IMG/VR virus record: IMGVR_UViG_2778261635_000007
Location: 1-3,295 of that record
Origin: a virus
Lineage: Duplodnaviria; Heunggongvirae; Uroviricota; Caudoviricetes
DNA length: 3,295 bases
Strand: one strand, 5' to 3'
Part shown: piece after piece, positions 1-3,295 of the stretch
How positions within the stretch are numbered: position 1 is the stretch's first letter
Layout of the letters: the number at the start of each line of letters is the position of its first letter
Notes under the pieces: generated by a model
What the model saw: only the letters and a program-made list of their open reading frames with translations
Told to the model about the DNA's origin: nothing
The model's database searches: none
Program-made: the position numbers and the translations under genes

Positions 1-486
1 GTGGGTGTCGGCATTCCGGCATGTTCCTGTTTAGATGATCCAGGCGCATACAAAGCTGGTTATGCAATCTGCCGTTCTGCAGATTTTAACTCATGGGAAT
101 ATGTGCCAGACCATCGCGGTGAAATCATCTATAGCACCGAAACAGGAGAATCGAAAGAAATCACAGCTCCGGGTGATTACCCTGATAATACAACCACTAT
201 CGCCCCGTTAACGCCATATGATAAATGGGATGGTGAGAAATGGGTGACGGATACTGAGGCACAGCATAGTGCCGCAGTAGACGCGGCAGAAGCAAAGCGC
301 CAGTCACTGATTGATGCAGCAATGGCTTCCATTAGTCTGATTCAGCTGAAATTACAGGCCGGGCGGAAACTGACGCAGGCAGAAACAACCCGGCTTAACG
401 CTGTGCTGGATTACATTGACGCGGTGGCGGCAACAGATACCAGCACCGCGCCGGATGTCATCTGGCCTGAACTGCCGGAGGCGTAG
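1..486 (+). CDS. Phage tail fibre assembly protein (Tfa/U family), 5' end outside the window; copy in the currently expressed orientation
   Basis: Frame 1 is open from the window edge to TAG at 484-486. The translation ends in DTSTAPDVIWPELPEA, the C-terminal motif shared by lambda/e14/Mu-type tail fibre assembly proteins, and contains an SWEYVPDHRGE block resembling the Tfa N-domain. The GTG at position 1 is very unlikely to be the real start; the true start is probably 80-100 nt upstream. Confidence 0.8.
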   Translation: MGVGIPACSCLDDPGAYKAGYAICRSADFNSWEYVPDHRGEIIYSTETGESKEITAPGDYPDNTTTIAPLTPYDKWDGEKWVTDTEAQHSAAVDAAEAKRQSLIDAAMASISLIQLKLQAGRKLTQAETTRLNAVLDYIDAVAATDTSTAPDVIWPELPEA

Positions 487-895
487 GCCATTCAATATCT
501 GGCGCACCGGAAGTATCGACCAGTTCCAGTGCGTCCAGATAATCCAGCCATAAATTATATTGTTCCAGCTCGTCACCTTTCAGACGACCAATAGCAGCTT
601 TGCCGGGCCATTGTTTACTGTTCATGTATTCGTTGGCCTGATTAATTAATAGCTGTCTTTTTGACTCAGAAATTTCAATAAGTTCTTCATGCGTGGGTGA
701 AGGAATATCTGCCCACGCAGGCATTCCGTCTGCACCTGCAATACGTCGCTTACCCTGCGGAGGTGTCGCCATAAACGACTCGGCACGTCGGGTTTCAATA
801 TCTTTTGCATCATCAGGCCATGTGCCGGAATCGCGGTATACGGCCTCATTACCAGCCAGATAAAACGCATTTTTTTTAGCACTGTATTTGTACAT
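458..895 (-). CDS. Phage tail fibre assembly protein, alternative copy (145 aa) in the silent orientation
   Basis: 145-aa ORF ending in VDTSGAPDIEWPTPPAVQAR, the same Tfa C-terminal motif. Its ATG (895-893) lies 1 nt after the TAA (899-897) of the upstream tail-fibre module, suggesting translational coupling. It converges on and overlaps the + strand Tfa gene by 29 nt (458-486). Confidence 0.8.
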   Translation of the reverse strand: MYKYSAKKNAFYLAGNEAVYRDSGTWPDDAKDIETRRAESFMATPPQGKRRIAGADGMPAWADIPSPTHEELIEISESKRQLLINQANEYMNSKQWPGKAAIGRLKGDELEQYNLWLDYLDALELVDTSGAPDIEWPTPPAVQAR

Positions 896-896
896 A

Positions 897-1316
897 TTAT
901 TTCCCTACCGCAATCCAGAAAAATGAACTCATGCTGGCTACTGGTACTCCGCCCGCTGTTGGAATCATCAGATTTCGGACGCCGCATCCTAAATTAGTTA
1001 TCGTTGGCGCTGAAATTACTGGCGACTGAACTACGTTAGGAAGCGATACCTGCTGAGGACCAAATCCCACATACATCGGGTATGCAGAGAACGCGACAGG
1101 AAACGTAATAAAGACCTCTCCAGTTGATGATGGATTGGCTGTCCCCCACTGAATAATCAGACCTGACGGTAATTTTTGCCAGCCAGGGCTGGTCAGGCTG
1201 GATGTGAAGTTATTCATATCCGGTATCTGATTTTTCCCTGTCCCCACATTCCGTTTTGCCGCTTCTCCCAAACCAACGTTTATGAAAATGCAGAGATAAT
1301 GGCTAACTGGCATCAT
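897..1316 (-). CDS. Tail fibre protein C-terminal variable module (promoterless alternative host-specificity segment); the in-window ATG is probably not a real start
   Basis: ORF on the - strand whose frame runs through the crossover site at 1263-1288. The translation is Gly/Pro/Ser/Thr/Val-rich, typical of tail-fibre distal domains, and it is immediately followed by a Tfa gene. The arrangement matches the Sv' U' half of Mu G / P1 C / e14 P invertible segments. The functional protein would only be made after inversion fuses it to the constant 5' part of the fibre gene outside the window. Confidence 0.6.
1263..1288. other. Site-specific DNA inversion crossover site (hix/gix/cix/pix family), invertase-proximal copy
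   Basis: TTCTCCCAAACCAACGTTTATGAAAA is an imperfect 26-bp palindrome. It matches the recalled Salmonella hixL site (TTCTTGAAAACCAAGGTTTTTGATAA) at 20 of 26 positions, including the central AA dinucleotide, and sits 55 bp upstream of pin at the junction with the tail-fibre module. Confidence 0.7.
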
Positions 1317-1343
1317 CCCCGGTTTTTATTCAGGGGATTGATC

Positions 1344-1898
1344 ATGCTTATTGGCTATGTACGCGTGTCAACAAATGACCAGAACACCGATTTGCAACGT
1401 AGTGCGCTGAACTGCGCGGGATGTGAGCGGATTTTTGAGGATAAAATCAGCGGCACTAAGTCCGACAGACCGGGGCTGAAAAAACTGCTCAGGACATTAT
1501 CGGCAGGTGACACTCTGGTTGTCTGGAAGCTGGATCGGCTGGGGCGTAGTATGCGACATCTGGTCATTCTGGTTGAGGAGTTGCGCGAACGAGGCATCAA
1601 CTTTCGTAGTCTGACTGATTCAATTGATACCAGCACACCAATGGGACGCTTTTTTTTCCATGTGATGGGTGCCCTGGCTGAAATGGAACGTGAACTGATT
1701 GTTGAACGAACAAAAGCAGGACTGGAAGCTGCTCGCGCACAGGGACGAATTGGTGGACGACGTCCCAAACTTACACCAGAACAATGGGCACAGGCCGGAC
1801 GACTAATTGCATCAGGAGCTCCTCGCCAGAAGGTGGCGATTATCTATGATGTTGGTGTGTCAACTTTGTATAAGAGGTTTCCGGTCGGAGATAAATGA
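1344..1898 (+). CDS. pin: Serine-recombinase DNA invertase (Pin/Gin/Cin/Hin family), 184 aa
   Basis: ATG at 1344 preceded by AGGGGA (1332-1337) with a 6-nt spacer; TGA at 1896-1898. The N-terminus MLIGYVRVSTNDQ carries the catalytic Ser of small serine recombinases, and a C-terminal helix-turn-helix-like region (GAPRQKVAIIYDVGVSTLYKRF) follows. Near-identical, from memory, to E. coli e14 PinE. The longer ORF from 1176 in the track is an upstream in-frame extension without a ribosome-binding site. Confidence 0.92.
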   Translation: MLIGYVRVSTNDQNTDLQRSALNCAGCERIFEDKISGTKSDRPGLKKLLRTLSAGDTLVVWKLDRLGRSMRHLVILVEELRERGINFRSLTDSIDTSTPMGRFFFHVMGALAEMERELIVERTKAGLEAARAQGRIGGRRPKLTPEQWAQAGRLIASGAPRQKVAIIYDVGVSTLYKRFPVGDK

Positions 1899-2160
1899 AA
1901 CCGTAGCACGTCGTATGCAAGAACGTGCCACGGCTGGCTGATGGACGTTCGATAGCGCGAGTTTGAATGAAAATCAGCCGGAGATGATTTTACATAATTG
2001 CTACGGAATTATTCAATACAGGAATTGCTTGTGTCTGCATGGATTGACCTGAAATAGTCCCGAAAATTTCTCTAAAAAACCCGAAAAAAATGGTAACTAA
2101 TTGAATGTATTAATATGTAATGGTACGTGTTAGGGATTAAAAGATGAGCATGAATTTATT

Positions 2161-2195: not shown

Positions 2196-2228
2196 GACGA
2201 AAACAGGAATCGTGTTCGGTCTCTTTTT
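2196..2228 (+). terminator. Hybrid (partly degenerate) intrinsic terminator derived from the SdsR terminator
   Basis: Left arm GACGAAAAC (2196-2204), 7-nt loop AGGAATC, right arm GTGTTCGGTC (2212-2221), then TCTTTTT (2222-2228). The stem has one bulge and one mismatch, whereas the native SdsR hairpin as I recall it is a perfect 10-bp stem. Confidence 0.45.
2203..2228 (+). ncRNA. sdsR: 3'-terminal fragment of the SdsR (RyeB) sRNA, a partial copy acting as prophage attachment core; the SdsR body is absent
   Basis: ACAGGAATCGTGTTCGGTCTCTTTTT matches the recalled 3' end of E. coli SdsR (ACAGGAATCGTATTCGGTCTCTTTTT) with one mismatch. The about 80 nt upstream is AT-rich and does not resemble the GC-rich SdsR body, so this is a displaced 3' end rather than the intact gene. 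Confidence 0.55.
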
Positions 2229-2362: not shown

Positions 2363-3019
2363 ATGAAACAGCCTGCGCCCGTTTATCAGAGAATTGCGGG
2401 TCATCAATGGCGACATATCTGGCTTTCTGGCGATATACACGGTTGTCTTGAGCAGTTGCGCCGCAAATTATGGCATTGTCGTTTTGATCCGTGGCGAGAT
2501 TTACTTATCTCAGTGGGAGACGTTATCGATCGTGGGCCGCAAAGTTTACGTTGTCTGCAGTTACTGGAACAACATTGGGTTCGTGCGGTAAGAGGCAATC
2601 ATGAACAGATGGCGATGGATGCGCTGGCATCCCAGCAGATGTCTTTGTGGTTGATGAATGGCGGCGACTGGTTTATTGCGCTGGCAGATAATCAACAGAA
2701 ACAAGCGAAAACGGCGCTGGAAAAATGTCAGCATTTGCCCTTTATTCTTGAAGTACACAGCCGCACCGGCAAACATGTTATTGCTCATGCCGATTATCCA
2801 GATGATGTTTATGAATGGCAAAAGGACGTTGATTTGCATCAGGTCTTGTGGAGCCGCTCACGATTAGGTGAACGCCCAAAAGGGCAGGGAATTACAGGTG
2901 CTGATCATTTCTGGTTTGGTCATACACCGTTGCGACATCGCGTGGATATTGGCAACCTGCATTATATTGATACCGGTGCTGCCTTTGGGGGCGAACTGAC
3001 TCTTGTGCAATTGCAATAA
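2363..3019 (+). CDS. pphA: Serine/threonine protein phosphatase 1 (PPP-family, lambda-phosphatase-like metallophosphoesterase), 218 aa
   Basis: ATG at 2363 with GGGAGG at 2348-2353; TAA at 3017-3019. The metallophosphatase signature is present: GDIHG, GDVIDRG, GNHE. Length and sequence match my recollection of E. coli PphA/PrpA. The TTG at 2360 used by the ORF track is a less likely start. Confidence 0.85.
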   Translation: MKQPAPVYQRIAGHQWRHIWLSGDIHGCLEQLRRKLWHCRFDPWRDLLISVGDVIDRGPQSLRCLQLLEQHWVRAVRGNHEQMAMDALASQQMSLWLMNGGDWFIALADNQQKQAKTALEKCQHLPFILEVHSRTGKHVIAHADYPDDVYEWQKDVDLHQVLWSRSRLGERPKGQGITGADHFWFGHTPLRHRVDIGNLHYIDTGAAFGGELTLVQLQ

Positions 3020-3211
3020 TTAAAAATCACCGTACTCCTGCGCAGGTCGCCAGAAACCATCTATAAAATCCTCAATCGGAAAACAACCGCCCTGGCGGAT
3101 CCGTTGATCGCTCATAGAATGAAGACACTGCTGTTCCGTGTTGTAGACATCCACAACAATATCTTCACAACCGCCATCCAGGTAGCAAACAAAAAGTACC
3201 AGCGCGAACAT
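3020..3211 (-). CDS. yebW: Small conserved protein, probably YebW (63 aa); start uncertain, ORF is open to the window edge
   Basis: Convergent with pphA, with a stop codon abutting the pphA stop. Starting at the internal ATG (3211-3209) gives exactly 63 aa, the length I recall for E. coli YebW, which lies next to pphA. A GGGG motif sits 4-5 nt upstream of that ATG. The identification rests on synteny and length only; I do not recall the YebW sequence. Confidence 0.4.
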   Translation of the reverse strand: MFALVLFVCYLDGGCEDIVVDVYNTEQQCLHSMSDQRIRQGGCFPIEDFIDGFWRPAQEYGDF

Positions 3212-3295
3212 TTCATCCCCGAAGTGTGGTGCCGTACCGTTAAGTTTAGGAGAGATTTTACAACGGGGGAATAACCAGGACAAATAACCCGCCAT

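Follow-up and report, generated by a model that had tools for sequence, protein, structure and literature searches.

The best described counterparts of the locus analysed here are the P segment of e14 in E. coli K-12 (stfP-tfaP / tfaE-stfE / pinE) and the G segment of Mu (S-U / U'-S' / gin). The system is well known; in its mechanism, recombinase and crossover site, and in half of its cassette, the locus essentially corresponds to e14, known since 1985. More recently, StfE2 was described as a chimeric product of the inverted e14, and its overproduction was reported to block the adsorption of T2 (Kirigo et al. 2025, PMC12529663). On the recombinase side, the residues Q-x-x-R-L have been described as unique to the invertases that depend on Fis and an enhancer (PMC3798978).

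We compared these systems to a window of 3,295 nucleotides, by which we mean the whole stretch of DNA that was analysed. The window is a 100% match to positions 121-3415 of contig NLSQ01000033.1 from the E. coli draft assembly GCA_002232435.1 (L010). A likeness to Mu G and the e14 P region had been proposed in the first-pass annotation, and it was borne out by a gene order that is equal in both systems. Gene order and strands are identical to those in e14, the 29-nt overlap between the 3' ends of the convergent tfa genes (458-486) is also found between tfaP and tfaE in K-12, and the GLGE junction is the same. The identity to K-12 amounts to 95.7% for Pin (to PinE) and 93% for the Tfa protein encoded on the + strand (positions 1-486, to residues 40-200 of TfaE), while the crossover site matches the pin-proximal e14 site at 26 of 26 positions. 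In addition, the second crossover site in several relatives of the window is exactly the published e14 pixL (PMC3241671). The differences to e14 are that the StfP/TfaP-type half represents another allele, with only 31% identity to the C-terminus of K-12 StfP for the Gp53-like tip and 50% identity to K-12 TfaP for the 145-aa chaperone, that the segment is oriented opposite to MG1655, the reference, and has the Gp53-like tip beside pin, that tfa carries an IS2 element, and that the prophage is of the myovirus type and located at sdsR/pphA, whereas e14 is lambdoid and located at icd. The Mu G segment shares with the window its architecture, an invertase that is transcribed away from the segment and a crossover site of 12-2-12 design, but the site sequence differs (core AA here, as compared to GA in Mu), the tips and chaperones are not closely related, and the segment is about 1.9 kb here versus about 3 kb in Mu.

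We put the probability that the locus is an e14-type Pin tail-fibre switch at roughly 0.88, and the region very probably corresponds to the pin-proximal two-thirds of an e14-type P segment. The following features were located in the window:

1 to 486, + strand: the 3' 161 codons of a TfaE-type tail-fibre chaperone gene (Pfam Caudo_TAP, E = 3.6e-32)
458 to 895, - strand: tfa', a TfaP-type chaperone of 145 aa (Pfam Caudo_TAP, E = 9.5e-29)
897 to 1274, - strand: an alternative fibre C-terminal tip, Gp53-like_C (Pfam, E = 7.5e-14), the variable module inside the invertible segment
897 to 1316, - strand: a chimeric ORF of 139 aa (ORF list), with the Gp53-like_C domain at residues 48-138
1263 to 1288, no strand: the pixR crossover site, with its inner half at 1263-1274, core AA at 1275-1276 and outer half at 1277-1288
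1289 to 1343, + strand: the leader from the crossover site to the pin start codon, in alignments conserved with e14 and partly with Mu gin
1344 to 1898, + strand: pin, a Din-family serine DNA invertase of 184 aa (Pfam Resolvase, E = 2.9e-52; HTH_7, E = 4.5e-13)
1414 to 1428, no strand: a candidate Fis-binding motif, GCGCGGGATGTGAGC, in the 5' part of pin (motif match)
2363 to 3019, + strand: pphA (ORF list and Pfam scan)
3020 to 3295, - strand: yebW (ORF list and Pfam scan)

The order and strands first proposed for the genes, with Tfa (+), convergent Tfa' (-), fibre tip (-), crossover site and pin, were all recovered with the ORF list, Pfam and the site search, and the PHROGs labels (tail fibre assembly, tail fibre as a virion structural protein, and DNA invertase) agree with them. 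The tfa ORF on the + strand is truncated by the window edge, so that its true start lies upstream and the GTG at position 1 does not serve as a start. The two Tfa copies had been called clearly different, which they are, since the identity between them is only 38% and confined to the C-terminal 72 residues. The window contains Tfa (+), Tfa' (-) and the Gp53-like tip (-); the 145-aa Tfa' is the partner of this tip, and the Collar-type tip that is partnered with the + strand Tfa is present in a sister contig (L011) and in the relatives. Judged by sequence, the TfaE-type half is nearly the K-12 allele, and the half with the Gp53-like tip and the 145-aa chaperone is a diverged allele. No match was obtained when the 145-aa chaperone was used as query in a sequence search of the PDB. 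The Gp53-like tip yielded weak matches to the fibre tip of R1-pyocin (6CXB, E = 6.8e-4) and to gp53 of AP22 (4MTM). Tip domains of the R-pyocin/gp53 type bind LPS sugars, and by analogy an LPS-type receptor for the tips is a reasonable guess, but no more.

The crossover site pixR at 1263-1288 reads TTCTCCCAAACC AA CGTTTATGAAAA and is letter-for-letter equal to the pixR sequence tabulated in Table 3 of PMC3241671. A search tolerating 3 mismatches still detected it a single time in the window, as compared to 0.00 expected occurrences in 200 shuffles. No second crossover site was identified in the window, neither with up to 3 mismatches over the full site nor with up to 2 mismatches over the inner half and core. 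A shufflon-like system with multiple inversions was rejected, since pixR was the sole site in both of these window searches. The Pin protein combines an N-terminal resolvase catalytic domain with a C-terminal helix-turn-helix domain, as seen both with Pfam and in the alignment to Gin, and thereby qualifies as a member of the Din family. Its residues 1-181 align with the solved structures of Mu Gin (3UJ3/4M6F, E = 1.7e-93), and the catalytic nucleophile Ser9 as well as the motifs YVRVSTNDQ, DRLGRS and QAGRL are all intact, the last of these being the form that Q-x-x-R-L takes in this protein.

The motif GNNYRNNWNNYRNNC was matched at gene coordinates 71-85 in pin of the window, K-12 pinE and Mu gin. 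The Fis consensus is degenerate, with 7 matches in the window versus about 6 expected by our own estimate, and no second Fis site to pair with 1414-1428 was conserved among pin, pinE and gin. By sequence comparison, the Fis-like motif at 1414-1428 may be part of a recombinational enhancer. The consensus scan gave no match to a promoter for pin between pixR and pin, and the sole match near the crossover site was weak (9/12) and placed inside pin on the - strand. A hairpin over the ribosome-binding site of pin (about 1309-1348) was considered and dropped, since its folding was no better than that of shuffled sequences (z = -0.79), and no structured element was demonstrated in the leader at 1289-1343.

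The cassette consists of two convergent modules, each of which has an alternative fibre C-terminus with a dedicated Tfa chaperone behind it. In the mechanism that we propose, Pin would act like Gin by cutting two inverted 26-bp pix sites at their AA core and exchanging the strands. The left site, pixL, would lie inside the fibre gene after the codons for ...LGLGE, and the right site, pixR, adjoins pin. Whichever tip faces the constant N-terminal part would be fused to it in frame and transcribed with its own chaperone, and the other tip would be left beside pin without a constant part. In the state captured in the window, the Gp53-like tip and the 145-aa chaperone would be off, and the Collar-type (StfE-like) tip and the TfaE-type chaperone would face the fibre gene. 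Inversion is presumed to depend on Fis and the enhancer, and by analogy the two orientations would yield virions with different receptor specificity.

We searched 12 related loci for the second site. In 11 of them a second, inverted site with an identical inner half and core, TTCTCCCAAACCAA, was found in the fibre gene at a distance of 1.85-1.9 kb from pixR; the exception is L005, which has one site only under the search criterion used. An inverted site had been anticipated 0.5-1 kb upstream of the window. This holds for L001, a relative at the same chromosomal locus, in which the site is found at 8421-8446, about 570 bp upstream of the equivalent of window position 1, but not for the source genome, in which pixL, with IS2 counted, should be expected at about 1.9 kb from the window. 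The constant part of the fibre in L001 has the sequence ...ALEYL|GLGE..., and that of the silent tip is ...FINV|GLGEAAKRN..., so that the frame is kept; the exchange point is the TT/AA core, and the site encodes GLGE in both contexts. The anticipated opening of the - strand fibre frame upon joining to a constant region is realized elsewhere, as the identical Gp53-like tip is fused in frame to fibres of 475 aa in the P2-like L002 and L007, 222 aa in the Mu-like L003, L006 and L009, and 215 aa in L008, with three constant regions that are unrelated to each other. The identical Tfa' protein is encoded in the same cassette of P2-like, Mu-like and other myovirus prophages. Positions 1-1281/1288 of the window show 99.5-99.8% identity to cassettes that are inverted relative to pin in L002, L003, L006, L007 and L009, and the similarity to these inverted copies stops precisely at 1262-1288. 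A cassette collinear with pin is instead present in L004 and L005.

The source contig L010 ends 120 bp upstream of the window, inside one end of the IS2 element, and pixL together with the constant region of the fibre would be located on another contig. We compared L010 to a sister contig, L011, from the assembly GCA_002232095.1. The two agree at 100% along 10,637 bp that extend from the site past pin and pphA, with the identity starting at window position 1262, at the inner half and core of the pix site. In L011, however, the Collar-type (StfE-like) tip adjoins pin instead of the Gp53-like tip. Since the two contigs share an identical 10.6-kb flank and pin, but have opposite ends of the cassette next to pin, the segment was flipped recently. 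The expectation that both orientations of the segment should exist was thereby confirmed, within the lineage by L010 versus L011 and among the relatives by the five inverted cassettes versus the two collinear ones. The opposite orientation in the sister assembly implies a pixL in this lineage, and we infer that pixL and the constant fibre region still exist in the source genome. The case for the present invertibility of this exact locus is built on the sister assembly together with the relatives.

Both contigs also start within an insertion sequence. The first 55 bp of L010 and the first 55 bp of L011 are 100% matches to the right and left end, respectively, of an annotated 1331-bp element of the IS3 family (L017, 325-1655), which we take to be IS2 from its length and termini. 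In the source contig, the element splits the + strand tfa after codon 19, at 65 bp before window position 1. The junctions carry a 5-bp duplication, TAACC: tfa codons 1-19 in L011 end with ...ATAACC, and L010 continues with TAACC and the rest of tfa. When the element and one copy of TAACC were removed in silico, a Tfa of 200 aa that is collinear with TfaE was restored. The insertion is thus reconstructed from one junction in each of two sister assemblies, and neither of the tfa::IS2 junctions was present in any of the 5,426 complete E. coli genomes searched. The most parsimonious interpretation is that IS2 was inserted once in tfa, that the two isolates share this insertion, and that Pin inverted the cassette at least once afterwards. 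With IS2 included, the invertible cassette is about 3.2 kb in this lineage, as compared to roughly 1.88 kb otherwise. The + strand module had been thought to be the one expressed; by inference it does have the corresponding orientation, but in functional terms its expression is doubtful, and with the + strand tfa split by IS2, proper assembly of a fibre is probably not possible in the orientation of the window. The sister isolates represent a natural pair that differs by a Pin inversion of an IS2-carrying cassette, and they show a switch that remains operative on a segment of about 3.2 kb with a damaged phage function.

The difference in orientation between L010 and L011 could also be an assembly artefact, or the outcome of recombination between IS2 copies rather than of Pin. 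Such an origin is suggested by the fact that both assemblies are short-read drafts in which the contigs end in a multicopy element, found at up to 39 places per genome. We nevertheless consider it highly improbable, because the contigs diverge exactly at the inner half and core of the pix site and not at the IS, because the repeat that they share is only about 15-20 bp and too short to mislead an assembler, and because identical breakpoints are seen in independent genomes. Another reading is that the switch is a locked fossil, in which the cassette has stopped inverting, for example through loss of pixL or of the constant region. It draws on the IS2 element in the prophage region and the further IS insertions in relatives at the same locus, and on the source contig itself, which shows only the right part and ends before the left half. 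Yet Pin is full length with all its catalytic and invertase-specific residues, pixR is unmutated, and the sister with the identical flank has both the opposite orientation and the complementary IS2 junction; inversion therefore took place after the insertion of IS2. A locked cassette is very improbable on these grounds.

A different view of the locus is opened by the 139-aa ORF on the - strand. The module on this strand had been regarded as promoterless and silent, a description that is not supported in this form, since the module is part of an ATG-initiated chimeric ORF of the StfE2 type (PMC12529663). The ATG is located outside the segment, and the ORF consists of a 14-aa pin-proximal leader, the GLGE encoded by the site, and the Gp53-like tip. 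The build is the same as that of StfE2, with a leader ending in FINVGLGE before the Gp53-like tip, and it is created only in this orientation. The source contig was the sole carrier of the exact 139-aa protein in the collection. It is conceivable, if rather unlikely, that the ORF yields a functional standalone product, by which the host blocks the adsorption of other phages in the manner reported for overproduced StfE2. The start codon and the build speak for this, as does the IS2 element, which compromises the prophage's own use of the switch. However, the published effect is based on overexpression, the tip has only the low identity to K-12 StfP given above, the - strand sequence that precedes the ORF showed neither a promoter-like site in the consensus scan nor a good ribosome-binding site, and intact P2-like and Mu-like prophages use the same tip as an ordinary part of their fibres. 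As compared to StfE2, the 139-aa ORF is a prediction from sequence with a divergent tip. If the anti-phage role of StfE2 is general, it would be a ready comparison allele.

Apart from its role in the e14-type switch, the cassette has a distribution of its own. Invertible tail-fibre cassettes are present in P2-like and Mu-like prophages from E. coli, Klebsiella and Salmonella, and related cassettes in deposited phages. An IS-free cassette rebuilt from L011 and L010 measures 1877 bp from site to site and shows 99.7-99.9% identity over all 1870-1877 bp to the P2-like L002 and L007 and the Mu-like L003, L006 and L009. The last 300 bp at each end of the cassette contain zero mismatches as far as the AA core, and the first mismatches appear within the outer half-site or shortly after it. 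By contrast, these prophages have different flanks with unrelated constant fibre parts, and their pin either reaches only 83-86% identity or is replaced. In other strains, prophages located at the same sdsR/pphA site have cassettes that are only 87-91% identical. Since the near-identity across unrelated prophages stops at the crossover sites, the sequence comparison indicates that the cassette is a recently exchanged unit bounded by these sites. Sandmeier reportedly raised the idea in 1994 that Din sites help phages acquire fibre segments. Tentatively, the cassette could have been swapped between unrelated co-resident prophages by Pin-type recombination in trans at pix sites, and a more mundane alternative is that homologous recombination in short conserved flanks moved it. 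The sharp boundaries at the crossover cores across unrelated phages could provide a test of cassette exchange by Din invertases.

The position of the prophage could be read from its junction to the host chromosome. Homology to K-12 begins at about window position 2198, inside the terminator hairpin of sdsR, which marks the prophage/host junction; only the last 26-33 nt of sdsR (about 2196-2228) are in the window, and Rfam gave a partial, sub-threshold match to RyeA at 2129-2232. About 300 bp of phage DNA separate pin from this junction, and pin is the last gene of a prophage that is inserted beside pphA, in the sdsR/ryeA small-RNA locus of E. coli. The chromosomal flank in L010 shows 98.2% identity to an E. 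coli genome. Where complete E. coli genomes have a prophage at the sdsR site, the genes upstream form a baseplate and tail module of the myovirus type with a short fibre gene at its end, and the host element is a myovirus-type prophage with the cassette at its right end.

Across loci L002-L009 (positions 9608-11535), the same cassette, that is, the invertible segment between the crossover sites, is present at 99.7-99.9% identity in P2-like and Mu-like prophages, and a copy with 97% identity was identified in a prophage of the Gp138-spike-type myoviruses (L008). The presence of near-identical cassettes in these prophages, with an identity that stops at the crossover cores in L002-L009, suggests from the sequence comparison that horizontal exchange takes place at the level of the whole cassette.

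Within the cassette, the 3' ends of the convergent chaperone genes tfa and tfa' share 29 nt (window 458-486), and an overlap of identical length was found in tfaP/tfaE of E. coli K-12 and in all related cassettes. The products of both genes are closed by a conserved ...DTS.APD(V/I).WP... motif, which is coded on opposite strands (inverted repeat, 405-427 / 526-548).

The + strand tfa gene is interrupted after codon 19 by IS2 (IS3-family, 1331 bp, named from its length and termini), which is flanked by a 5-bp duplication, TAACC. Two other insertions were identified in the switch of L015 (NZ_CP148483.1), a relative whose prophage is located at the same sdsR/pphA site, and IS insertions thus recur in the switch locus. 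The elements are located as follows:

L010 (source contig) 1-60, lying 65 to 120 bp before the start of the window, and L011 (sister assembly contig, cassette flipped) 1-60; same direction as tfa; IS2 ends
L015 821-2029; ISVsa5, upstream of the fibre gene
L015 4335-5548; IS3-family element, separating the silent tip from pin

An open frame that starts inside the right end of IS2 continues into tfa and is annotated as a gene of 195 aa, and a truncated chaperone might therefore be produced by read-through.

A short TGGCAT(C/G)AT box (window 1308-1316) was observed in the leader that separates the crossover site from the start of the invertase gene. The box is invariant from pin through Mu gin, while the leader around it differs, and it may be a promoter or a regulatory element. 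At the other end of pin, a partial, sub-threshold match (29.6 bits versus 76, Rfam) to CssrB, a chromosomal sRNA in Shigella, was recovered at window 1872-1932. This match is confined to the 3' hairpin ACCGTAGCACGTCGTATGCAAGAACGTGCCACGG, located directly after the pin stop codon. The hairpin is probably the terminator of pin and the counterpart of a hairpin that follows a pin gene in Shigella.

The junction between the prophage and the chromosome was placed at about window 2196-2203, inside a region (2129-2232) with a sub-threshold match to RyeA (29.2 bits versus a gathering score of 37, Rfam). Homology to K-12 starts within the hairpin that terminates the small RNA SdsR (antisense RyeA). No more than the final 26-33 nt of sdsR remain in the window, and the left hairpin arm is supplied by the phage as a diverged copy. 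This position fits with the ryeA/ryeB locus being a known hot spot for insertions.

Further into the chromosome, the yebW frame was identified:

window 3020-3295; yebW frame, open for 91 codons from an ATG that lies right at the window end

In the draft assembly yebW is called with a length of 91 aa, and RefSeq lists no more than 63 codons for it in K-12 and relatives; the two differ in the annotated start codon.
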